This document shows, piece after piece, positions 2,781 to 60,985 of a stretch of DNA of 64,000 nucleotides. The first letter of the stretch is position 1. The number at the start of each line of letters is the position of its first letter. This DNA is from Candidatus Poribacteria bacterium (GTDB lineage: Bacteria; Poribacteria; WGA-4E; WGA-3G). The stretch lies in the NCBI GenBank assembly GCA_963664215.1, contig OY761015.1; one strand, written 5' to 3'. The position numbers and the translations under genes are program-made. The notes beneath the pieces are model-generated. The model worked only from the letters and a program-made list of their open reading frames with translations, was not told the DNA's origin and searched no databases.

Positions 2781-2998
2781 GGTTATCTCCTCCGTCGTTA
2801 ATTTGGCTTGAGATTTTTCCAGAAACCGCTGAAATTCAGATGTAGTACTTGCGATTAACCACTATACGAACGCCACGGACTTGGCAGCGGTAACCCGCTG
2901 CACCGTGCGCATCCGCTAACAAAATGTTCGGACGCAGTATATCACGTCCGTGGAAAAATGTCATGTTATTTGTGTAGGTGATACGGGTATTTAGTTTC

Positions 2999-3128
2999 CC
3001 TGTAGGAGGGAACTCCGATTTCCGACTCTTATGCCCATTTCTGTAGGAGGGAACTCCGATTCCCGACTCTTATTCACCCCTGATACGGGATAGAGCGGTG
3101 CTGACCGCCGACTACTATTCCCGTTAGT
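2999..3128. repeat. cluster of intergenic hairpin repeats, family A (CTGTAGGAGGGAACTCCGATTCCCGAC, two tandem copies plus flanking GATACGGG partial units)
   Basis: Copies at 3001-3027 and 3041-3067; same unit recurs at 4750-4776 and 12242-12300; contains GGGAA-N6-TTCCC hairpin. Confidence 0.8.
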
Positions 3129-4042: not shown

Positions 4043-4115
<73 letters not shown>

Positions 4116-4630: not shown

Positions 4631-4749
4631 AAATTTTCACCTCTAACTTCGATATGGAACTCGAAATAAATGCTCTTAATACCATGATACCATGAAGAGT
4701 GAAGGATGTCAAGGACAAACGGTGGAAATGTCAAAGGCATTCAATTCTC

Positions 4750-4776
4750 TTGTAGGAGGGAACTCCGATTCCCGAC
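4750..4776. repeat. family A intergenic hairpin repeat
   Basis: TGTAGGAGGGAACTCCGATTCCCGAC, identical to copies at 3041-3067 and 12242-12268. Confidence 0.8.
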
Positions 4777-8266: not shown

Positions 8267-8297
8267 ACTTGTAGGGGCAGGTCTTGTGCCTGCCCAC
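8267..8297. repeat. family D intergenic hairpin repeat (CTTGTAGGGGyAGGTCTTGTGCCTrCCCC)
   Basis: Matches 24340-24373; stem GGGGCAGG/CCTGCCC. Confidence 0.7.
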
Positions 8298-9218: not shown

Positions 9219-9349
9219 ACACTCAGCTGTTCTGACCCTTTTGGCGCAACTTGCAATCCGAATCTTCATAAGGCTATGTGCGTAGCTCGTAACGTAGTGG
9301 AGAGCGGATTTGAGAAAGGATTGTCAAAGTTCCAATCCATGTCATTTAA

Positions 9350-9372
9350 CCGCAAGGAATAATTAAAAAATG
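9350..9372 (+). promoter_or_regulatory. conserved leader motif CCGCAAGGAATAATTAAAAAATG ending on start codon
   Basis: Near-identical 23-mer also at 12319-12362 (two tandem copies), 46739-46761, 42609-42631; variants at 30993-31011, 55534-55557(-), 49914-49938(-), 32380-32416. Confidence 0.6.
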
Positions 9373-10818
9373 CGAAAAAAAATAACACGGTTTAGCACAC
9401 CTCACCGCTTGGTGTTTATCGTGCCCCTTCTTTTGGTCATGATACTCGGACTCGGATGTGATAACCAGTATCACGATGAACGCCTGAAGATGCAGGTACA
9501 GCAGTTAGACAGCGACCTGAAAGATCGCTGGTCAACCAGCGGTGTCGTTGTTTTGAGTACCACACCAAACGGACCCGCAGATAGAGCACAACTTGAGACC
9601 GGTGAGCTCATCTCTTATGTCATCGCAGAATATCCTGTCCGAAGTACCGGAGATTTTAACAGCGCCATGAAACAGGCAGTTGATGAGGATAATAACTTCG
9701 TCCTCTACTTGAAGGATAAACCGCCGCTCCGTATCGCGCTCCGAAGACGAGGGGATAAGGTGGGATTGAGTGTTGAAGGAAACGGCACCGTACGGGTCAA
9801 ACAGATTCAACCCGGCACTCCCGCCGCGAATGCTGATATTCAGGTAGGCGACATTATTGAGAAGATTGTTGATGAGCGCAAAATTTATAGCCTTGATGAC
9901 TATAAGGATACGCTTGGAAAACTCTCTGAGAAGCAAGTCACCTTCCGTACCTCTGAATTAATAGGTGTGAAGATTGCTGCTGTGAATGCGCTTGGCGATT
10001 TAGGGGATATCCGGGCAATTCAACCGCTCGTGGACCTCTTCAAAAATAGCACTGAGTTCTCGCTTCGAAAAGGGGCAATTAGTAGTCTGCAACGCCTTGT
10101 GGAATTGAGCGTCCTCAACGAGCTTTTCCAGCAGTTTCAGAGTGCTGATGTGAATCAGCTCCCAGCCGATAGCCTCCAGCCACAGCAGTTGGAGCCCGCG
10201 GCAATCCTCGGATTGCTTACTGTAGACAGGACCGAGAATACCGCTACGCTCAAAGCACCTTTCGGAACGCAATTCAGACACAGATCCGAGGCACTTTATC
10301 AGAAAATTAACGAAGGACAACTTGCTGAACTTGCCCAAGAATATATCCAGATCGAAGTAGAACCGGAGCAGGAGATTCGACGCGCGTGCTTGGCTATACT
10401 CGGAATTCTCAAACCAGTTTCTGCGATTGATGCACTCGTCGCTGTCCTGGAAAACCCAACAGAGATCCCCGGAATTCGCTTCCAAGCAGGGTTAGCGCTC
10501 AGTCAGATTGGTGAACCCGCTGTTGATGCGCTTATCGCCGCATTTGAAAAGGGAGATACCAGCACGCAGGACATTGCCGCTTCTGCACTCGGAGGCATTG
10601 GGGGGGCTAAGGCGCGTGATCGGTTGATTAATGCTTTGGAAAGTAGCACTGAGTCGGCGATTCAACTCACACTTGTCGATGCGATCGCAAAAATCGGCGA
10701 TGCACCCTCTATCCAGGCATTGGAACGCCAGCTTCAGCGGTCCCAGCAGGATGATGACAGCGGAGTCCGCATCTTTCTGGACGAGGTTTTCAGGAGTTTG
10801 GCATTTTCTAACGATTGA
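9370..10818 (+). CDS. membrane-anchored PDZ domain plus HEAT-repeat protein
   Basis: 482 aa; N-terminal TM; PDZ-like segment GTPAANADIQVGDIIEKI; multiple HEAT repeats. Confidence 0.55.
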   Translation: MRKKITRFSTPHRLVFIVPLLLVMILGLGCDNQYHDERLKMQVQQLDSDLKDRWSTSGVVVLSTTPNGPADRAQLETGELISYVIAEYPVRSTGDFNSAMKQAVDEDNNFVLYLKDKPPLRIALRRRGDKVGLSVEGNGTVRVKQIQPGTPAANADIQVGDIIEKIVDERKIYSLDDYKDTLGKLSEKQVTFRTSELIGVKIAAVNALGDLGDIRAIQPLVDLFKNSTEFSLRKGAISSLQRLVELSVLNELFQQFQSADVNQLPADSLQPQQLEPAAILGLLTVDRTENTATLKAPFGTQFRHRSEALYQKINEGQLAELAQEYIQIEVEPEQEIRRACLAILGILKPVSAIDALVAVLENPTEIPGIRFQAGLALSQIGEPAVDALIAAFEKGDTSTQDIAASALGGIGGAKARDRLINALESSTESAIQLTLVDAIAKIGDAPSIQALERQLQRSQQDDDSGVRIFLDEVFRSLAFSND

Positions 10819-10895
10819 ATCTGAACTGCTACGTCTGTTGTCTTTGCAGTATTTCAATCGTTCAAAATCTCTCATCATTGACAGACGGTTGGATC

Positions 10896-10977
10896 TAACC
10901 GAGAACCACCGTGAAACATTGTCCCGCAGGGCTCCTTGATAGGCTTGCACAGGGAACGGTGCCCAGATTCCCATAGC
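10896..10977. repeat. ~78 nt conserved intergenic element, family E copy 1
   Basis: TAACCGAgAACC...GTGAAACATTGTCC...AGGCTTGCACAGGGAACgGtGCCCAGATTCCCATAG; second copy at 29938-30015 with 33/36 identity in the 3' half. Confidence 0.8.
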
Positions 10978-11003
10978 TAAAAAAAACGGGTCGTGGGCTG
11001 CTA

Positions 11004-11840
11004 ATGAAGATTGGACTCATTTCAGACTTGCACACGGACATTACGCCTTGGAATAAGGCACTTGTCCCACATCTTATTGATGCCGTTAGTGCCGCAGAGC
11101 TTGATGTTTTCGTACTCGCAGGAGATCTCGCGCGACATTTAGTTCATCTTTCTGAAACGCTGAATGCCTTTCATCTTGCGGATCTGGCGTGTGAGAAATT
11201 GTTCGTTCCCGGTAACCACGACATTTGGGCTATTGAGACCGTTAACGTTACAAGTGAACAGAAGTGTGGGATTATTTCGGAACTCTGTCATGCCTGCGGA
11301 TTTCATCCGTTGATGGACGAACCCTTTATCACGGAAAAAGTCGGTTTCTGTGGGACTATCGGCTGGTACGATTATAGTTTTGCCCCAGACGGATACAATT
11401 TTTCCGACGATCAATATGCCGAAAAGGAATTGACGGGAGCCGTCTGGAACGATAAGCGATACGCTAAATGGGGTGATACCGATCCGGTTATTGCCCGACG
11501 TTTTGAAGCGGATCTTGAGAGGCAGATTGCCTCTATTCAGAGGGATGTATCTCGGATCGTTGTCGTTACACATCATGTTCCGTTTCGAGAGTGTATCCGA
11601 TACCGCGGTGAGTTGCCATGGGATTATTTTCGAGCATTCATGGGCAGCAAACATCTCGGGGCACAATGCTTACAGGAGTCTCTCGTCACGCATGCACTCT
11701 TCGGGCATGTACATCATGCAGTTGATATGCAAGTTCGCAGTGTACGGGCTATTTCTGCTCCTGTCGGTTATCTTCAGGAAGAACCTACCGTCGGATTGCA
11801 GACGTATGCCGCAGAATGTTTGACGTGTTTCAAGGTATAA
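11004..11840 (+). CDS. calcineurin-like metallophosphoesterase
   Basis: 278 aa; DLH, GDL, GNHD phosphoesterase motifs. Confidence 0.65.
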   Translation: MKIGLISDLHTDITPWNKALVPHLIDAVSAAELDVFVLAGDLARHLVHLSETLNAFHLADLACEKLFVPGNHDIWAIETVNVTSEQKCGIISELCHACGFHPLMDEPFITEKVGFCGTIGWYDYSFAPDGYNFSDDQYAEKELTGAVWNDKRYAKWGDTDPVIARRFEADLERQIASIQRDVSRIVVVTHHVPFRECIRYRGELPWDYFRAFMGSKHLGAQCLQESLVTHALFGHVHHAVDMQVRSVRAISAPVGYLQEEPTVGLQTYAAECLTCFKV

Positions 11841-11870: not shown

Positions 11871-12230
11871 ATGGATGTAACTTTAACGAACAGTAACGAT
11901 GCAGGGGCTCTTGAATTTCCGTGGGGCGCGATTAAGTGGCTCTGTAACGATCAGATTGATCCAGAAGCTGAGATGACATTTGGTGTCGTCTATATTAACG
12001 CCGGTGAAGGCAACCCTACCCACTATCATCCGAACTGTGAGGAGCTGATCTATGTGCTCTCAGGTGAATGCGATCACAGATTGGGAGATGAGGTGATCCC
12101 GCTCAGACCGGGTATGATGCTACGTATTCCGCGTAATGTCAAACACAATGCCGTCAACACCGGTTGGCAACCCGTAACGATGATTATCTGTTATTCGGAT
12201 GCCGATCGGCAAACCATTTTTGAAGAATAG
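11871..12230 (+). CDS. cupin domain protein
   Basis: ATG at 11871 preceded by GAAAGGAAAA RBS (track ORF starts at 11841 immediately after the upstream stop, unlikely); conserved HYHPNCEELIYVLSG and NVKHNAVN cupin motifs. Confidence 0.6.
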   Translation: MDVTLTNSNDAGALEFPWGAIKWLCNDQIDPEAEMTFGVVYINAGEGNPTHYHPNCEELIYVLSGECDHRLGDEVIPLRPGMMLRIPRNVKHNAVNTGWQPVTMIICYSDADRQTIFEE

Positions 12231-12241
12231 AAGCGATTCTT

Positions 12242-12300
12242 CTGTAGGAGGGAACTCCGATTCCCGATCGCTTCTGTAGGAGGGATTTTTAATCCCGACC
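12242..12300. repeat. family A hairpin repeats (two tandem copies, second with GGGAT-TTTTA-ATCCC stem variant)
   Basis: CTGTAGGAGGGAACTCCGATTCCCGAT and CTGTAGGAGGGATTTTTAATCCCGACC; compensatory stem change supports hairpin function. Confidence 0.75.
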
Positions 12301-12359
12301 CTATCCTACTCCATTTAACCGCAAGGAAAAATTAAAAAACCGCAAGGTATCATTAAAAA

Positions 12360-13073
12360 ATGTCTACAGAATCTCGTTGCAGTGTTAAAATCTGCGGTAT
12401 CACCTCTATCCATGATGCTCAACTTGCTGCCGATGCAGGCGCGGATTACATCGGGGTATTGGTGGATGTTGCCGTATCCGAACGGACACGCTCCGCGACG
12501 CAAGCCGCTGAAATTGCCAGCAAGAGTCCTATTCCTACCGTCATTCTACTCTATAACCGTTCAACATCTGACATCCAAGAAATCATCTCACAGGTCCAAC
12601 CTTTTGCCGTTCAACTCCTTGGCCAGGAACCTCCGCAACAAGTTGAGGCACTTAAACGCGAAGGCGCATGTCAATTTTGGAAATCGGTGTATTTGCCGGC
12701 GGGAAGTCCTAAAAATGTGGACATACCGGCTGTTCAGGAGGAGATGCAGGCATATTGGAAGGCGGGCGCGGATTTCCTGCTATTTGATAGCGTGGATATG
12801 AGCCTTGAAAAACCGAGATACGGCGGCACCGGAAAAACCTGTGATTGGAATGTTGCTGCTGGACTCATTACGAGGAGTCCACTGCCGGTTTTCTTCGCAG
12901 GTGGGATTCGTCCAGAGAACGTCAAAGCCGCGATTGAGACAATTCAGCCACACGGTATCGACCTCTGCTCCGGTGTCGAGGCATCAAAGGGTATCAAAGA
13001 TCCGAGCAAATTGGAACGACTTATGGCACAGGTTGAGCAGGCTGACAAAAAGCAGAGAAATTATTCACAATAA
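12360..13073 (+). CDS. trpF: phosphoribosylanthranilate isomerase
   Basis: 237 aa; KICGITSIHDAQLAADAGADYIGVL and C-terminal FAGGIRPENV motifs of TrpF; no other trp genes adjacent. Confidence 0.85.
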   Translation: MSTESRCSVKICGITSIHDAQLAADAGADYIGVLVDVAVSERTRSATQAAEIASKSPIPTVILLYNRSTSDIQEIISQVQPFAVQLLGQEPPQQVEALKREGACQFWKSVYLPAGSPKNVDIPAVQEEMQAYWKAGADFLLFDSVDMSLEKPRYGGTGKTCDWNVAAGLITRSPLPVFFAGGIRPENVKAAIETIQPHGIDLCSGVEASKGIKDPSKLERLMAQVEQADKKQRNYSQ

Positions 13074-24285: not shown

Positions 24286-24373
24286 CCTTGTGGGGCTTGG
24301 GTGTTTCTGGGTCTTGTGTCTACCCCGCATCTAAAGGGTCTCTTGTAGGGGTAGGTCTTGTGCCTACCCCGCA
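24286..24373. repeat. family D hairpin repeats (partial + full copy)
   Basis: CCTTGTGGGGCTTGGG...GGGTCTTGTGTCTACCCCGC and TCTTGTAGGGGTAGGTCTTGTGCCTACCCCGCAC. Confidence 0.7.
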
Positions 24374-28788: not shown

Positions 28789-29853
28789 ATGAACGATATT
28801 TCATCTGGTAAATTGCGGGGTATCATGAAACTTGCCGATGCGAATGGTCGCTTCAAAATGATGGCGATCGACCAGCGGGGTTCCATGGTACAAGCACTCG
28901 CAGATGCACTCGACAAGGACAACGATGATGTCCTATACGAAGATGTCGCAGCATTGAAAACTTTGATTACCCGAATCCTTTCCCGGAATGCAACAGCCGT
29001 TCTGACCGACCCAATTTACGGGCATCCCTACTCTATTACCGAGATTCCACGGGATGTCGCATTGCTGTTAGCTTATGAAGAATCCGGTTATGTCAGCGAA
29101 GGGGTCGGTGAAAACGAACGTCTCTCCAATCCGATCGCAAACTGGAGTATCGCCAAGGCACAGCGCGCCGGGGCAGATGCCATTAAACTCCTCGCCTATT
29201 ACCATCCTGACGCCTCCGCGGAAACCCTTGAACACCAGCAAGCCTTTGTGCGTCATGTCGGAGACGAATGCGAAAAGCAGGATTTGCCGTTTTTGTTGGA
29301 ATTGGTCAGTTATGCGCTTGAAGGCACCACAAAGAGTGTCGCCTTCGCGAAACAGAAACCCGACCTCGTGATTCGGAGTGTCGAGGAGTTCACCGAGCCA
29401 AGCTACAAAGTTGACATTCTGAAGTTAGAATTTCCTGCCGATCTGAAATACACAGCAGATTATCAAGATGCCAGTTTTTACGCAGGGGATTCGGCGTATG
29501 GACTCGCTGAAGTGAAGGAAATCTGCCAGAAATTAGACGAAACCTCGACGCTGCCGTGGGTGATTTTGAGCGCCGGTGTGGATATTGAGGAATTCATCGA
29601 AAATGTTGACCTCGCAACTGGTGCCGGAGCAAGTGGTTTCCTCTGCGGAAGAGCCATCTGGAAAGATGCTGTCCAATACTATCCTGATGCTGGGGCAGTT
29701 GAGCGGTTCTTGGAAAACGAGGCAACAACGAACTTTAAGAACGCAAACGCTGCCGCAGAAAACGCGTTACCGTGGTTCAAGCATCGCCAATTTGGGGGTG
29801 TGGAAAACGTTCAAGTTGCTAAGCAATCCGCAACGTGGTATCAAGACTATTAG
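28789..29853 (+). CDS. class I aldolase of DeoC/LacD (tagatose-bisphosphate aldolase-like) family
   Basis: 354 aa; FKMMAIDQRGS resembles LacD AFDQRGAL; TIM-barrel-like. Confidence 0.5.
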   Translation: MNDISSGKLRGIMKLADANGRFKMMAIDQRGSMVQALADALDKDNDDVLYEDVAALKTLITRILSRNATAVLTDPIYGHPYSITEIPRDVALLLAYEESGYVSEGVGENERLSNPIANWSIAKAQRAGADAIKLLAYYHPDASAETLEHQQAFVRHVGDECEKQDLPFLLELVSYALEGTTKSVAFAKQKPDLVIRSVEEFTEPSYKVDILKLEFPADLKYTADYQDASFYAGDSAYGLAEVKEICQKLDETSTLPWVILSAGVDIEEFIENVDLATGAGASGFLCGRAIWKDAVQYYPDAGAVERFLENEATTNFKNANAAAENALPWFKHRQFGGVENVQVAKQSATWYQDY

Positions 29854-29937
29854 GGGATATCTACGTTTACCCGGTTACCGTTTGGGGGGCGATACAGCAA
29901 AGGCAATTATGCAACCGATTCCCAGGCGGGTGAGAAT

Positions 29938-30015
29938 TAACCGAAAACCGTTGTGAAACATTGTCCTGCAAGCCTATAGAGGCTTGCACAGGGAACAGCG
30001 CCCAGATTCCCATAG
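29938..30015. repeat. ~78 nt conserved intergenic element, family E copy 2 (perfect hairpin GCAAGCCT-ATAG-AGGCTTGC)
   Basis: Ends exactly at the stop codon of minus-strand gene 30016-30492. Confidence 0.8.
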
Positions 30016-30492
30016 TTAGAGAGACAGCAGTGCGCTCTGAATTTTCTTGGAAATTTTTTTGGCGATATGGAGGGTCGTTTCCTCGGGAACCTGCCCTCCT
30101 ATTTCAGCGACCAGCACGACGACAGTTTGTTGTACGAACAGAAAGTTCGATCCAGCCTGCCACACTATATCACCCAGACCATGTTTGTTATTTGATGGAG
30201 GTTGATAGATAGAATCACGTCCACCTAATTTCGGCACGGTCTGCGCGGAAAGCCGAAATCTGCCTTCATCAGCGACTGTGCGTGCTTCGTCGTGTGACTC
30301 GAAGAACCAGTAATTGATGACAACTTGCTGGGTGGCTGTGTGGTTTAACCACCATCTATCGCGCCAACCGAATTGTGCGATCGGTCGTCTTGGGGCTGTT
30401 GGAGAGTAGATTTCTTGGGCAGAAGTACGACGCGCGGCTACATCTGCCAAGTCATCAGGTGTAAGTTGAATTGCTTCAAGCGTGAGTTCCAT
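30016..30492 (-). CDS. hypothetical protein
   Basis: 158 aa ORF; Trp/Arg-rich; no recognised motif. Confidence 0.35.
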   Translation of the reverse strand: MELTLEAIQLTPDDLADVAARRTSAQEIYSPTAPRRPIAQFGWRDRWWLNHTATQQVVINYWFFESHDEARTVADEGRFRLSAQTVPKLGGRDSIYQPPSNNKHGLGDIVWQAGSNFLFVQQTVVVLVAEIGGQVPEETTLHIAKKISKKIQSALLSL

Positions 30493-30706
30493 GTTGGTAT
30501 GATAACATCACTCACAGCAAAAATTCAAATTAAAAACAGGATTCGCTGCGACGCTGATGGAACCCCTTCCCCGATAGGTGCGGTTTCTAAACGCCCATAG
30601 GTGTCAATTTCAGAAAAAGAGTCGTGTTTCTTTCGATGAAAAAGCATTATCAGACAGTGGGATCCCTTGTATCTCCCAGAAAACGTGAGGTGCCTATTTG
30701 GTCTTC

Positions 30707-30781
30707 AGCCCCAGCGGGGCGACATCTATGTAGAAACGGGGTCCCCCCAAGGAGTAAGCCCCAGCGGGGCGACATGTGTGG
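30707..30781. repeat. family C hairpin repeats (AGCCCCAGCGGGGCGACATCTATGTAGAAAC + degenerate second unit)
   Basis: Related copies at 39684-39712 and 55682-55760; GCCCC-N3-GGGGC stem then TCTAnnTAGA box. Confidence 0.75.
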
Positions 30782-36371: not shown

Positions 36372-36649
36372 AATTTCTCCGTCTTGTCGTGCCTTTTACG
36401 AAGCACGAGATGTGAAATAGACATCATCACGGATTTTTTTATGAAGTTTAAGTATTTAATTCGGTAATATTTATTTTCCCCAAGTTCGGTAGGTGCGGTT
36501 TGTAACCAGGGTTCCCGCCCGTTACTGGGAAGGGACACCCGGTATGGTTATGGAATTACCGAAATATTTTATTAATCTTCATTCAAAAAACCCTTTCAAT
36601 GGCAAACACTTAGTTAAGAGGTTTTCGTTTAACAACGCCTCTTTTAACA

Positions 36650-39211: not shown

Positions 39212-39683
39212 AAGTTTCTTCCTTTTGCTGAAGGCTAATACGCTGAATTCTAAAAGTTTTTCACAGAATTGTCAAGCATTTCAAGGATTGTAGACGCTTT
39301 TTTGACATATTACAGTAAAATCCGAAATTTAAGGAGACATTTTTGCTCAAGTTGGTTCGTAGTCGTGCGATTCATCGCACGTCATATCGTTCAAGATTAC
39401 CCAATTTATTTGTTAATCCTCATTAAGCAATATTAAAAAACAATCTGTTACTTCTCTACCAGGGGTCGAACTCGTAGGGGCTGGGTTTCCCTGCCCGTTA
39501 TCAATTTGGACACGCTTATTGTGGCGCAAACTGAAATTGGGTGCTGTGAATCTCTATGGATCATGAACCGCTTTCACGAAAAACGGTGTTTGCCCCTCTA
39601 AAATTTTGTAAATAGCAAGTTGGGTATTATAACCCACGTTGTTATCTATAGGCAACAGGCCTGTTTGCTCCATGTATTCGGTT

Positions 39684-39712
39684 CCCTAACGGGACGACAT
39701 CTATGTAGAAAC
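39684..39712. repeat. family C repeat (CCCTAACGGGACGACATCTATGTAGAAAC)
   Basis: Matches GGGGCGACATCTATGTAGAAAC core of 30707 and 55682 copies. Confidence 0.7.
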
Positions 39713-42586: not shown

Positions 42587-42628
42587 ACTAAGGTATAATT
42601 AAAAATCTCCGCAAGGTAAATTAAAACT

Positions 42629-43048
42629 ATGTCTCTCCGTAGGCGATCTCGCATCGTTGCGATGCAAATACTATATCAGATTCAACTCACCGCCGCGCCA
42701 GTGCCAAGCGTTATGGAACGGTTTTGGCAGAGCCAAGACACATCGGCAGAACTCCGACCCTTCGCTTTGGAACTCGTTGAAGGCACGACTTCACATCTGG
42801 AGGCGATTGATACAATACTCCAAGATACATCCAAAAATTGGAAACTCCACCGGATGCCTGTCGTCGATCTCTCTATTCTGCGATGTGCAACTTACGAAAT
42901 TCTCTATCTTGACGATATCGACGCGGCAACCTCGATCAACGAGGCTGTTGAGATCGCTAAATCCTACAGCACCCCGGACTCCCCTAAATTTATCAATGGG
43001 GTCTTGGACAATATCCGAAAAAAACATCCGCATGTTCCTGAATCTTAA
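42629..43048 (+). CDS. nusB: transcription antitermination factor NusB
   Basis: 139 aa; MSLRRRSRIVAMQILYQ N-terminus typical of NusB. Confidence 0.8.
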   Translation: MSLRRRSRIVAMQILYQIQLTAAPVPSVMERFWQSQDTSAELRPFALELVEGTTSHLEAIDTILQDTSKNWKLHRMPVVDLSILRCATYEILYLDDIDAATSINEAVEIAKSYSTPDSPKFINGVLDNIRKKHPHVPES

Positions 43049-43083
43049 CATATCCTATTTCTGATTAATTTTTGACCCCAGGC

Positions 43084-43111
43084 CTGGTAGGTGCGGTTTC
43101 ACAACCGCACC
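43084..43111 (+). terminator. family B hairpin (GGTAGGTGCGGTT-tcac-AACCGCACC) downstream of nusB
   Basis: Perfect 8 bp stem; family also at 19914-19936, 30581-30603, 36487-36507 and inverted at 55803-55829. Confidence 0.5.
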
Positions 43112-46660: not shown

Positions 46661-46758
46661 TTGGTTAACTGAAACGCAACCAACGGGCGTGCTGACTCGA
46701 ACCTAATACGGGTCAAATTTCAATTTGCTGTTACTTATCCGCAAGGAATAATTAAAAA

Positions 46759-47751
46759 ATGGTTCAACATCTATGTTTTGGCAGTGCGATGTGTAAACGT
46801 GTATTGCAGATCAGTCTCATTGTTATCGGTGTTATGGTGTGTGCGTCGGCTTTTGCTGACGAAGGGCATGAACATTCAGGCGATCGGATAAAAGAGTTTA
46901 TGACCCAACCGCTGACGCTCCAGTTTATAATCGCTGCGCTCGTCATCTCATTCGTACTCGGCGGCTTGCACGCATTGACACCCGGACACGGGAAAGCCAT
47001 AGTCGCCGCTTATCTCGTCGGTTCCAAAGGCAGGGTAATTGACGCAGTTTTTCTTGGGCTTGTTGTCACCTTTACGCACACCTTCAGTGTCATAGCACTT
47101 GGCATCGTGATGCTGGTAGCACAAGGGTTCGCACCGGAGGATATCGTTCCGTGGTTAAGTCTATTCTCTGGTGTTTTAATTGTGGGTATAGGCGCGTGGC
47201 TGTTCACGAAAAATATGAAACAGTACTATACTGGTGGTGCACACAGCCACAGCCATGGACATGGAGACGGGCATCACCACCCGCATGACCACGACCATTC
47301 ACATGACCATGACCCCGACCACGACCATGATCATAATCACGATCACGGTCATTCACATGATCACGACCATGACCCCGACCAGGGACTTACACACAGTCAT
47401 GGGGGACGGGTGCATAGTCATGCCCCGCCGGAACGGACAGGTTTTTGGGGATTGCTATCGCTCGGTATCTCCGGTGGCATTGTCCCTTGTGTTGATGCGC
47501 TCGTTGGGCTTCTGTTCGCGATTAATCTCAACAAACTTGTCTGGGGTCTAATTATTCTATGTGCTTTCTCATTGGGGCTTGCCGCTGTTCTGGTTGCTAT
47601 CGGTATTCTGATGGTGATGGCGAAACCGTTGTTTGAACGCTTCACAGGCGAAGGTATCTGGCTCCAACGCCTACCGATTATCAGTGCCGCTGTCGTTGTT
47701 CTGCTCGGTGCAGTATTAGTATTCAAGGCACTCAACACTGTCGGTATTTAG
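46759..47751 (+). CDS. NicO/RcnA family nickel/cobalt transporter with histidine-rich loop
   Basis: 330 aa; LTPGHGKA motif; long HDHDHSHDHDPDHDHDHNHDHGHSHDHDHD loop. Confidence 0.65.
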   Translation: MVQHLCFGSAMCKRVLQISLIVIGVMVCASAFADEGHEHSGDRIKEFMTQPLTLQFIIAALVISFVLGGLHALTPGHGKAIVAAYLVGSKGRVIDAVFLGLVVTFTHTFSVIALGIVMLVAQGFAPEDIVPWLSLFSGVLIVGIGAWLFTKNMKQYYTGGAHSHSHGHGDGHHHPHDHDHSHDHDPDHDHDHNHDHGHSHDHDHDPDQGLTHSHGGRVHSHAPPERTGFWGLLSLGISGGIVPCVDALVGLLFAINLNKLVWGLIILCAFSLGLAAVLVAIGILMVMAKPLFERFTGEGIWLQRLPIISAAVVVLLGAVLVFKALNTVGI

Positions 47752-58009: not shown

Positions 58010-60985
58010 CTATTTTTCTTCAAGCCCGATGTGCAATATCCCCCGATCTTCAGTAGCACTATAAAGCCTATTGTTAGCAATAGCGAGGGCATTGATTTCA
58101 TCTGGTACTTCTGAAGCAACCTGGGTCCATTGACTATAAGGGTCCAAATGATGGACCCCCGCATCGCCAATACCGTAAACTTTAGAGTCGTCCATAGCAA
58201 ATTTGTCTATGATGGTACGCGCCCCAGTGTTATCTGTTATCACGCGCCAGTGTTCGCCGGTTTGTGAAACTAAAACACCAGTGTCAGTTGCGATGTAAAC
58301 GGTTGATCTCACAAAAGCGATCTCATTGAAGCGGATAAATCGGAGTGGAAGGCTGGGTGTAACATCTTTCCAATAAGTTCCCCCATCCAGGGACTGAAAC
58401 AACTTACCATTCCGTTTCCCGACGTAGACGGTTTCTCCCGATACCGCTACCTTGAGTCCCTTTCTGGAATCACGGTCAAACATGTGACTTGTATCTACCA
58501 ATCCAGTATTTATCCACTCTGGATCTCCAAGCCTCCATTTGAAAAGTCCGCGTTTGTATTCCACGTAGAATACATCACGACTGACTGCAACTGTTTTGAC
58601 TTCCACATTTCCAGGAACAGGAGATGTAGAGGTTGACGCAGCGCCTTCTTTTGAGCTGTCGGACGAGCGTTTTGTCTTTACCTTCGTGCCACTTGCCCAC
58701 AATTCGGGAGATAACGTTCTATCATCAAAAGCAGGTATGCCTTGTACAAGACTGAGCGTATTGCCATCTGTAGATAAGCGGAAAATTTTCAATTTCTTTT
58801 CTGCACGTGCGAAAAAATATAGACAATTGTCATCCGCTATCAGTTTTGAATAAAAAAGAGTATAGACGCGAACCTTGTTCTCGTTTTGTTCTGACCATTC
58901 AAACTCAGTACCCTCCACCTCAAAGTTTCCGTCAATCGCAAGATTTTTCCAAGACCTACCTTCATCGGTTGATTCGTAAACCTCATAACCTGTATACGCG
59001 TATAATCTGTTGTTGCATACAACCAAATCCTTTAGCCTTGTTCCCATCATCCCATTCACAAATAGACGCCACGATTTACCACCATTGGTCGTGCGAAAAA
59101 TACCGTATGGACCAGTTTTGTAAAATGTTTTCTCATTCACCGCCACAGCTGGAAGGCTGTTGACCATGAACATATTCGTATCTCCTGCAAATTCTGTCCA
59201 AGTTTGTCCACCATCTGTTGAATGAGATTCGGTGGCACCCAATGTTATGAGCGTTTCGCCAGCCGCCAAAACCCCTATACCCGATGGTACCGCCTCTGAG
59301 TAATCCTTATACGTTATTTCAGTCCAAGATTCTCCTAAGTCAGCGGAATGACAAATTCTGACTGAATGTGATTCGCTTTTCGACACTATTTGTTCTGTTG
59401 CTCTTGGAGTGAATCCCAACAGATAGGGACCCGTTCCCATATAGAGGTTATTCCCAGATACTGTCAAGGAGTAGACGGCTCTTGATGTCTCCACAGGCAA
59501 CTTTTTCCAAACACCTGAGTCGAGACGGTAGAGACCGCGCCCTGTACCCGTAAATACCGTTTCTCCAACAGCAGTCACTGCCGAAATTATTTCGCCTGTC
59601 AAGCCATCGTTAAACGGATGCCATTGTATCCCACCGTCTGTGGATCGGAAAACTCCTGCATCCCTAAGTGCCAGATACATCGTGATATCTGCTTGTGAAT
59701 CGGCATCTTGGGGTGCGTCTGTGATGATGAATCCAACGGCGTGGCCCTTTGGTCGGGGACCCAGCATATGCCACGTCTCACCACGATCAACTGAAGTGAA
59801 TATTTCATCCACAGAGGCGATATACAGGCTTCCGTTATGTTCTGCCATCGGCATTCGAGAGTTATCTATCGGGAAGCTCGCGTTGACGTGTGTCCATGCG
59901 GTCGCATCTGCTGCTAATTTGAACATTCCTGTGGGGGCAACAGCATAGACAGTTCCTTCAGATGTAGCGAACATACTACGGACATGGCCCCCTGGCGGTG
60001 CGCTCCCCTGCGTCCATTGTGAGAAGGCGGTGGACTCGCGTGAATCCTCTAACATATTGGATTTTGAAACGGTTTCAAAATCCTGGATACCAGCACTGCT
60101 TCTACCCGGAGTAGTGGTTTCCCCAAACTGATTGCGTATAGCCGGCTTTGATACAATATCAAGGACGATAGGAGCATCAACAATTTCAATTGTAAGTTCA
60201 GATTCCGCCTCAAAACTATACGGTTTCTGGAACCAAGCGAGGAGTTGGTTACTCACGCCGAGCATCAACATAACCAAAACCACCGCCGTCCCGAAAGCCG
60301 CCCACGGTAGTAATGGCTTTCCAACTGGAGGCTGTATCGGTTTCATGTTTGCGACCTGTTCCATGATACGCGCAGTGAAATCGGCAGGGATTTGGATGCT
60401 TCCGAGCGTTTCACTCACCAAGAATTCCTCTTGTTGTTCCTGTAAACGTTTCCGACCCCGGCGAAGTCGGCTCTTAATCGTGTTCACCGACACGCCTAAG
60501 AGTTTTCCAATCTCCTTTGCTGTCATCTCTCCGAGGAAGTGGAGTGTTACCACTGTGCGTTCACTCTCCGGTAGTTTTGCCAGAAGTTTTTTGACGAGTT
60601 CATGGCGATTTTCGGTAATCTCTGTCTGTCGCTGTTCCGATACGTGATGTGTGTAAGAGGATTCTTCGATGTCTTCCACAGGTGTGTCCTCCAATGAGTG
60701 CATCACAGATGTGTTTTTATTCTTTTGAAGCCATTTAAGGCAGAGTCGACTCGCGATGACATACATCCATCCCGAGAACTGATTTGGATTCTTGAGTTGC
60801 GCGAGATTCTTATAGACTTGAAGGAAAGTGTCTTGTGCAATCTCTTCAGCAATGTGAAAATCACCAACTTTTCGCCACGCAAGTGCGTGAATACCCTTTT
60901 GGTGCCTACGGACCAAAGTACCGAATGCTTCATCGTCACCCAACAAAATTCGTCGAATGAGTTGAACATCGTTTTTCTTATCCAT
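58010..60985 (-). CDS. ECF-type sigma-70 factor fused via one TM helix to a large periplasmic BNR/Asp-box beta-propeller domain
   Basis: 991 aa; sigma70 region 2 (FLQVYKNLAQL) and region 4 (LPESERTVVTLHFLGEMTAKEIGKLLGVSVNTIKSRLRRGR); TM PLLPWAAFGTAVVLVMLMLGV; >=7 Asp-box units SxDxGxTW. Confidence 0.75.
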   Translation of the reverse strand: MDKKNDVQLIRRILLGDDEAFGTLVRRHQKGIHALAWRKVGDFHIAEEIAQDTFLQVYKNLAQLKNPNQFSGWMYVIASRLCLKWLQKNKNTSVMHSLEDTPVEDIEESSYTHHVSEQRQTEITENRHELVKKLLAKLPESERTVVTLHFLGEMTAKEIGKLLGVSVNTIKSRLRRGRKRLQEQQEEFLVSETLGSIQIPADFTARIMEQVANMKPIQPPVGKPLLPWAAFGTAVVLVMLMLGVSNQLLAWFQKPYSFEAESELTIEIVDAPIVLDIVSKPAIRNQFGETTTPGRSSAGIQDFETVSKSNMLEDSRESTAFSQWTQGSAPPGGHVRSMFATSEGTVYAVAPTGMFKLAADATAWTHVNASFPIDNSRMPMAEHNGSLYIASVDEIFTSVDRGETWHMLGPRPKGHAVGFIITDAPQDADSQADITMYLALRDAGVFRSTDGGIQWHPFNDGLTGEIISAVTAVGETVFTGTGRGLYRLDSGVWKKLPVETSRAVYSLTVSGNNLYMGTGPYLLGFTPRATEQIVSKSESHSVRICHSADLGESWTEITYKDYSEAVPSGIGVLAAGETLITLGATESHSTDGGQTWTEFAGDTNMFMVNSLPAVAVNEKTFYKTGPYGIFRTTNGGKSWRLFVNGMMGTRLKDLVVCNNRLYAYTGYEVYESTDEGRSWKNLAIDGNFEVEGTEFEWSEQNENKVRVYTLFYSKLIADDNCLYFFARAEKKLKIFRLSTDGNTLSLVQGIPAFDDRTLSPELWASGTKVKTKRSSDSSKEGAASTSTSPVPGNVEVKTVAVSRDVFYVEYKRGLFKWRLGDPEWINTGLVDTSHMFDRDSRKGLKVAVSGETVYVGKRNGKLFQSLDGGTYWKDVTPSLPLRFIRFNEIAFVRSTVYIATDTGVLVSQTGEHWRVITDNTGARTIIDKFAMDDSKVYGIGDAGVHHLDPYSQWTQVASEVPDEINALAIANNRLYSATEDRGILHIGLEEK

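Follow-up and report, generated by a model that had tools for sequence, protein, structure and literature searches.

An intergenic segment of about 80 nt occurs twice, in two distant places, in a 64-kb stretch of DNA (hereafter called the window) from Candidatus Poribacteria, which are uncultured sponge symbionts. This raises the question of what the two copies are: a binding site for a protein, a structured RNA serving the neighboring genes, or a piece of mobile DNA. In the literature searched, no description of intergenic repeats in Poribacteria was found.

Both copies lie on the + strand, in direct orientation, and they are ~85% identical, with 12 mismatches and one 3-nt indel over 84 alignment columns. 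Copy 1 (84 nt) spans positions 10896-10979, as delimited by pattern matches, local alignment and the repeat families D8/D9; copy 2 (81 nt) spans positions 29938-30018, on the basis of pattern matches, local alignment and repeat families. Three blocks, GTGAAACATTGTCC, AGGCTTGCACAGGGAAC and GCCCAGATTCCCATAG, are identical in the two. A search of both strands of the 64-kb window, in which up to 3 mismatches were tolerated, places the 3' block AGGCTTGCACAGGGAACNGNGCCCAGATTCCCATAG at 10941-10976 and 29980-30015 and nowhere else, and the 5' block TAACCGANAACCNNNGTGAAACATTGTCC at 10896-10924 and 29938-29966, likewise exclusively. In the control, 100 dinucleotide shuffles gave 0 block matches, vs 2 in the real sequence, and the number expected by chance is 0. 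Thus, the two conserved copies described in the original prediction are found at these places and nowhere else in the window, where no third copy, even a diverged one, was detected. The conservation of the 3' block is likewise borne out, with an identity of 34/36 in place of the 33/36 first claimed. The starts initially assigned to both copies stand, while the right ends have to be moved by 3 nt, to 10979 and 30018, the positions that the homology reaches in local alignment and in the repeat families, with the ending ...CCCATAG[C/T]TA. On the left side, an extension of 19-20 nt shows no significant similarity in local alignment (139/500 shuffles score equally). Copy 1 is made of a 5' tail, TAACCGAGAACC, a long hairpin and a 3' tail, CCCAGATTCCCATAGCTA. 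An identical copy 1 is carried by a contig from the same species (L107, a 3-kb Logan contig, SRR32085980, 99% identical).

From its base outward, the predicted hairpin comprises a 6-bp basal stem (P1), a 9-nt asymmetric bulge, a 4-bp middle stem (P2) and an apical stem of 8-9 bp (P3). In copy 1, it covers 55 nt of the + strand (10907-10961; MFE fold, RNAalifold consensus and pair counts). There, CACCGT (10907-10912) is paired with ACGGTG (10956-10961) in P1, the bulge GAAACATTG occupies positions 10913-10921, and TCCC is paired with GGGA in P2. In the register of the alignment, P3 reads GCAGG[GCT]CCT - TGAT - AGGCTTGC and includes one G.U pair as well as a bulge of 3 nt; when copy 1 is folded alone, the MFE structure (-19.2 kcal/mol, 52% of the ensemble) shows a slightly different arrangement of this apical part. 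In copy 2, the hairpin lies at 29949-30000 on the + strand (MFE -20.7 kcal/mol, z = -3.5; RNAalifold and pair counts). Its P1 pairs CGTTGT (29949-29954) with ACAGCG (29995-30000), GAAACATTG is found again as the bulge (29955-29963), P2 pairs TCCT with GGGA, and P3 corresponds to GCAAGCCT-ATAG-AGGCTTGC (29968-29987). The perfect hairpin noticed earlier in copy 2, TGCAAGCCT-ATAG-AGGCTTGCA, is therefore confirmed. By contrast, the 5' arm of copy 1, which had been considered degenerate, differs only by the 3-nt insertion that forms the bulge and by an A-to-G change giving the G.U pair, and the folding is kept.

All the stem substitutions that separate the two window copies keep pairing (7/7). In the outer stem, CACCGT/ACGGTG in copy 1 vs CGTTGT/ACAGCG in copy 2, the five differences amount to two compensatory double changes and one wobble; elsewhere in the stems, C-G is replaced by U.G and A-U by G.U. 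An RNAalifold alignment of 6 family members, the two window cores and four relatives from other Poribacteria described below, gives one long imperfect hairpin common to all 6, with 97.9% of the pair cells standard and double (compensatory) changes at 4 pairs. For covariation, a score of 0.279 was obtained, vs 0.138 for shuffles, 0/500 of which reached it. As a control, sliding the 3' partners by 1-3 columns leaves only 29-46% of the cells paired. Moreover, when read on the + strand, all three wobbles are G.U, and this strand is more stable than its complement in 6/6 members. It is therefore the + strand that would fold, as RNA or as single-stranded DNA. The unpaired bulge, G[A/T]AACATTG, is almost invariant in the family, which suggests a sequence-specific recognition. 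Taken at the level of the alignment, this pattern of substitutions shows that the hairpin is under selection. The original prediction, in which sequence rather than structure was conserved, has to be reversed on this point: stem changes co-vary, no pair is broken, and both copies share one fold. The protein-binding site deduced from it loses its footing in the same way, because the variation between copies obeys base-pairing and the outer 6-bp stem co-varies.

As had been stated, each copy follows a + strand gene. Copy 1 starts 78 nt 3' of the stop codon of a HEAT/PDZ gene (9370-10818, +) and ends 25 nt 5' of the ATG (11004) of a metallophosphoesterase gene (11004-11840). Copy 2 starts 85 nt 3' of the stop codon of a tagatose-bisphosphate-type aldolase gene (28789-29853, +). 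Its reported contact with the stop codon of a convergent gene is also real, since this codon falls inside the copy: the last three conserved bases (TTA) are the stop codon of a 158-aa gene located at 30016-30492(-). The genes flanking the two copies are functionally unrelated, and the flanking proteins have homologues, 85-99% identical, that are named Candidatus Poribacteria; the window therefore belongs to the chromosome of a Poribacteria of the sponge-symbiont type. The other genes of the window are ordinary housekeeping or transport genes, except for one Tn5/IS4-like transposase gene at 51466-53199(-), with Tnp_DNA_bind and Dimer_Tnp_Tn5 domains, which is the sole transposase gene of the window. 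Two further features of the gene content can be mentioned: a 991-aa protein (58010-60985(-)) in which an ECF sigma-70 factor (regions 2 and 4) is fused to BNR/sortilin-type beta-propeller repeats, and a tRNA gene (4043-4115(+)), the sole Rfam match in the window.

The history of the two sites was examined in syntenic regions from more than 80 Poribacteria genomes (about 1.7-1.8 Mb). In at least 10 related Poribacteria genomes, the spacers at both junctions measure only 8-48 nt. At site 2, between the aldolase gene and the convergent gene, the junction is a continuous sequence of 45-48 nt in L001, L002, L007, L046, L036, L037 and L041; L110, with an aldolase 96.6% identical, has an empty site too, of about the same length. 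In the window, this spacer measures 186 nt and is interrupted by a block of 121-138 nt. The 121-nt inserted block (29900-30020, +), absent from L001, L002, L007, L046, L061 and L110, where the ancestral sequence is continuous, consists of copy 2 and of 38 nt of 5' sequence without counterpart in copy 1. The 8-mer GATTCCCA is found both in this unshared 5' part (29917-29924) and in the conserved 3' tail (30005-30012), as an internal direct repeat. The block is bordered by the 9-nt direct repeat D2, GATACAGCA on the left (29891-29899) and GAGACAGCA on the right (30021-30029). Because the relatives hold a single homologous CGACGGCAG, D2 can be read as a target-site duplication of ~9 bp. The convergent gene still has its ancestral C-terminus, ...SALLS, encoded by the right duplication, GAGACAGCA. 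The block landed in the last codons of this gene, where ...SALLS was kept and is followed by a leucine (L) and a stop codon that come from the element.

At site 1, between the HEAT/PDZ and metallophosphoesterase genes, the spacer measures 37-38 nt in L007, L014, L015, L022 and L036 and 47 nt in L061, L065 and L076; it reaches 185 nt in the window and in L107. To the left of copy 1, ACGGTTGG (10885-10892) is a possible target duplication that resembles the ancestral spacer ACGGGTTGTGG through a degenerate match; ACGGGTTGTGG has a single occurrence in L007, L015, L022 and L036. To the right, a possible counterpart, ACGGGTCGTGG (10986-10996), was aligned to the empty sites of L007, L014, L015, L022 and L036 and runs on into the ancestral spacer GGCTGCTA-ATG. 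It is plausible that ACGGTTGG and ACGGGTCGTGG, around copy 1, derive from a degraded duplication of ACGGGTTGTGG. In L108/L109, the nearest complete relative (96% identical), this spacer measures only 8 nt (9992-10001 in L108, 2368-2377 in L109). Relative to window positions 10825-11001, this genome misses a 177-nt block that includes the ancestral spacer, and a CTGCTA direct repeat is present at the junctions in the window. Since the ancestral spacer is also lost, this genome was rejected as a clean empty site 1, read as a secondary deletion and left out of the evidence; the 177-nt loss looks like a deletion between short repeats. Upstream of copy 1, a 15-nt inverted repeat (TTTCTAACGATTGAA at 10805-10819, TTCAATCGTTCAAAA at 10853-10867; 87% complementary) straddles the stop codon of gene 9370-10818; the 33 nt between its two arms are missing in more distant relatives. 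This region is a second small rearrangement.

The comparison of orthologous junctions therefore shows that both copies sit within lineage-specific inserted blocks. The suggestion that the element was recently mobilized finds support here, both copies being contained in insertions that are missing from the same junctions of related genomes. Other insertions of 100-215 nt, unrelated to the element, occur at these junctions in L003, L032, L010, L065, L076, L018, L027, L028, L015, L016, L020 and L029-L031. The one present at site 1 in L010 is a classic MITE with 13-bp inverted ends (TTTTATAGTAAAG...CTTTACTATAAAA). With such unrelated small insertions at the same two junctions in other species, the junctions can be regarded as insertion hot spots.

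Are there relatives of the element outside the window? Full copies were searched for with BLASTN, nhmmer and the covariance model R1 in the about 1.7-1.8 Mb from more than 80 Poribacteria genomes, and none was found elsewhere, the only hit being a distant relative in L046. The exact 3' block CAGGGAACNNNGCCCAGATTCCC has 0 matches in GTDB representative genomes and JGI metagenomes. A metagenome scan with the hairpin block AACATTGTCCNGCAAGCCT returned 24 matches, of which 5 are true relatives (3 distinct) and the rest chance matches; the same block has 0 matches in viral contigs. In total, related cores were recognized in L046, L089 (two copies, one of them decayed), L090 (same as L092) and L100 (same as L104). 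They share the arrangement aaaccGTAG-stem-G[A/T]AACATTGTCC[C/T]GCAAGCCT-loop-AGGCTTGC, with GTAG at the base of the stem, and their 3' parts are unlike the CCCAGATTCCCATAG tail of the window copies. The L046 core is an insertion too, relative to L003 and L010. The L090 core is antisense to both of its neighboring genes; therefore, the orientation of the element relative to transcription is not fixed. From these alignments, a wider family of this hairpin is shown to exist in other Poribacteria.

The window itself holds at least 4 other families of short intergenic repeats, mostly made of GTAG followed by a GC-rich hairpin (for instance CTGTAGGAGGGAACTCCGATTCCCGAC, CTTGTAGGGGCAGGTCTTGTGCCTGCCC and GGTAGGTGCGGTTTCTAAACCGCAC). 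Their members are located at 2986-3067, 4736-4776 and 12228-12268 for one family; at 8268-8295 and 24342-24369 for another; at 30562-30592, 36477-36507, 43075-43110 and 55803-55830 for a third; and at 30702-30780, 39677-39709 and 55679-55760 for a fourth. GTAG precedes 6/76 of the perfect hairpins of the window (stem of at least 7 bp), vs 0-2 for four control tetramers that bear no relation to it. Two other controls, which have three bases in common with GTAG by overlap, score as high (TAGG 6, GGTA 5), as is to be expected when the same sites are counted. A 79-nt direct repeat pair, 77% identical (30669-30747 and 55646-55724), contains a hairpin GCCCC(N3)GGGGC followed by GACATCTATGTAGA. Independently, a ~24-nt motif, TTAACCGCAAGGAATAATTAAAAA, is found directly 5' of the ATG, at a fixed spacing, in five unrelated genes (9346-9372; 12313-12362, as two tandem copies; 42609-42631; 46735-46761; 55534-55560(-)), with AATAAT at -12 to -7 from the ATG. 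To judge from its position, it could be a leaderless-type promoter or a translation-initiation module. In relatives, the reversed motif TTTTAATTTTACCTTGCGG occurs directly after stop codons. The TTAACCGCAAGGAATAATTAAAAA/TTTTAATTTTACCTTGCGG motif borders repeated units of ~100-150 nt, three of them in tandem in L005, and flanks the L046 element; TTAACCGCAAGGAATAATTAAAAA has 46 matches in 1.8 Mb.

REP and REPIN sequences are among the closest known systems. REPs have GTAG at the 5' foot of the hairpin as a hallmark and are mobilized by RAYT (Y1 HUH) transposases. Like them, the present element is an extragenic hairpin with an imperfect palindrome, of similar size, repeated, found in either orientation and evolving through compensatory stem changes. 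The Poribacteria relatives (L046, L089, L090 and L100) have GTAG at the stem base, and the same genome carries the several other families of GTAG plus hairpin. The GTAG and the palindrome of the relatives would, by analogy, imply a RAYT-type enzyme, and the REP-like repertoire of GTAG hairpins implies a RAYT-type system somewhere in the genome. However, the place of GTAG is taken by ACCG in copy 1 and by GTTG in copy 2 of the window. REPs and REPINs reach tens to hundreds of copies per genome, whereas the number of copies is low here as far as seen: two in 64 kb, with one orthologous copy in L107. The window contains no RAYT gene, and no integrase or Y1 transposase (Y1_Tnp domain) was found among its ORFs. 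Finally, RAYT and IS200/IS605 enzymes insert without target duplication, whereas duplications of ~9 bp are apparent at copy 2 and degenerate at copy 1.

Target duplications would rather recall MITEs, for which Correia/CREE, ERIC, RUP and Nezha are bacterial examples. As in MITEs, the unit is non-coding, measures ~100 nt, is folded, resides in intergenic DNA and gene ends, and is present or absent between relatives. The target duplication, clear at site 2 and suggestive only at site 1, goes in the same direction, as does the remodeling of a gene's C-terminus and stop codon. However, no terminal inverted repeats were found at either inserted block, where only TAAC...G[T/C]TA (3-4 bp) could pair. 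Therefore, the element is not a textbook MITE, and the lack of inverted ends argues against an ordinary MITE of the DDE type. The two inserted blocks are also of unequal length on their 5' side, and an IS that could be the parent, with the ends of the element, was not seen in the window. The Tn5-like IS was considered as a parent element and rejected, its ends and flanks being without similarity to the repeat. PATEs, which derive from IS200/IS605, have in common with the element the absence of TIRs, recognition through a hairpin and strand specificity. But PATEs insert 3' of a fixed tetra- or pentanucleotide, without target duplication, whereas the element has such a duplication and its left junctions differ (TTGG|ATC vs CAGCA|AAGG).

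Could the hairpin instead serve the host? A structured RNA included in the mRNA of the upstream gene, as a 3' UTR or intercistronic stabilizer, a processing site or a small RNA, would account for the co-orientation of both window copies with their upstream gene, for the location of copy 1 inside what in L108 is an operon with an 8-nt spacing, and for the three features of the fold underlined above: compensatory changes that keep it, a near-invariant unpaired bulge, and G.U wobbles and higher stability on the + strand. It would also be compatible with mobility, as for E. coli REPs, the transcribed hairpins of which protect mRNA 3' ends or intercistronic regions. However, the element is missing at the same junctions in all related species, and therefore neither of the flanking operons needs it. 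In addition, the flanking genes have no functional relation, the L090 relative is antisense to both neighbors, and the element has no Rfam match, either at the gathering threshold or at E<=10 in the window and at E<=1 in the relatives. No sigma-70-like promoter or intrinsic terminator was found at the element either. A host-functional RNA as the primary nature of the element thus appears unlikely. A further alternative is a double-stranded DNA site for a regulatory protein. The long identical blocks of the two copies (GTGAAACATTGTCC, AGGCTTGCACAGGGAAC, GCCCAGATTCCCATAG) are what such a site would leave, but the variation between the copies follows base-pairing rules and not those of a duplex motif, copy 2 sits where two genes converge, a position devoid of any promoter to control, and promoter-like sites are lacking, as is the element itself at orthologous sites. 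We therefore consider a duplex binding site very improbable.

Another comparison is with integron attC sites, which the integron integrase uses as folded single strands. Imperfect palindromes with unpaired bases, located 3' of ORFs and conserved in structure above sequence, are common to both. Copy 1 begins with ATCTAAC, which fits RYYYAAC, and the end of copy 2, GTTAGAG, agrees with GTTRRRY at 6/7 positions. But in attC sites the R'' box (RYYYAAC) pairs with the R' box (GTTRRRY), and the L boxes contain extrahelical bases, whereas each copy has one approximate box, neither has both, and the terminal boxes are unpaired in every predicted fold. Moreover, there is no integrase in the window and no cassette array, and no ORF is present in the inserted block, whose flanking duplications stem from two different targets, so that an attC-like site is hardly to be expected here. 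Least credible of all are two readings that take the copies either as the attL/attR ends of a 19-kb integrated island or as a conserved small ORF on the minus strand (MGIWA...). The former would agree with direct repeats 19 kb apart, but trpF, two amt genes, purD, a polyprenyl synthase gene and others that lie between the copies are syntenic in relatives without the repeats; therefore, the copies are not island ends, and this candidate was rejected. As for the latter, an ATG-initiated ORF does begin at the same position of the element in both copies, but the peptides differ at many positions, show no coding constraint and have no protein homologues; the substitutions not being coding-like, this candidate was rejected as well. 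When the peptide encoded across copy 2 was used as a protein query, which would have revealed copies mis-called as genes, no match was obtained.

Altogether, the two copies probably represent a new family of REP/MITE-like, non-autonomous mobile hairpin elements, ~85-120 nt long and non-coding. The evidence tends toward the plain REP/MITE that the original prediction had named as its refuting outcome. The alignments show that the element is repeated and that it was inserted at both sites. Its ends are poorly defined, given the 38 extra 5' nt of the copy 2 block and the degenerate duplication at site 1. It can be proposed that the imperfect hairpin of ~55 nt on the + strand is the functional core of the element. 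This hairpin, folded in single-stranded DNA (or in RNA), and its bulge GAAACATTG would be the recognition target of a trans-acting enzyme. Such an enzyme, presumably encoded elsewhere in the genome, would copy or move the element to new intergenic sites, and the insertion would leave a short target duplication (~9 bp). Alongside mobility, a host role of the transcribed hairpin is possible by analogy, in the protection of mRNA 3' ends or intercistronic regions, since a transcribed copy of the element could act on mRNA ends as E. coli REPs do.

More speculatively, the strand-specific hairpin might spread by a mechanism not yet described for bacterial small repeats, which we regard as rather improbable. 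The argument for it would be the combination of a near-invariant 9-nt bulge, target duplications of ~9 bp and no terminal inverted repeats. Under this doubtful reading, the 3' end (A-rich in copy 1) would be constant from copy to copy, and the 5' end would vary or be truncated. At the same low level of confidence, this mix of features would fit either a hairpin-recognizing enzyme making staggered cuts or an RNA-mediated, target-primed (SINE-like) copying in Poribacteria.

For annotation purposes, repeat masking should be applied to these 80 nt, and they should be treated neither as a regulatory motif nor as a small gene, and it should be noted that the stop codon and the last residue of gene 30016-30492(-) are supplied by the element. 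With REP/MITE-like mobility as the probable nature of the copies, they would belong to a common kind of genomic parasite and not to a new regulatory system. The window and its relatives contain several small hairpin repeat families, a repeated leader-like motif and gene ends that are recurrent hot spots of insertion. Elements of this kind are useful as strain markers; in genomes that are out of reach of manipulation in culture, they can also change the expression of operons and the ends of genes. With a selected hairpin, a target duplication and no inverted ends, this family would be a reasonable place to seek a mobilizing enzyme.
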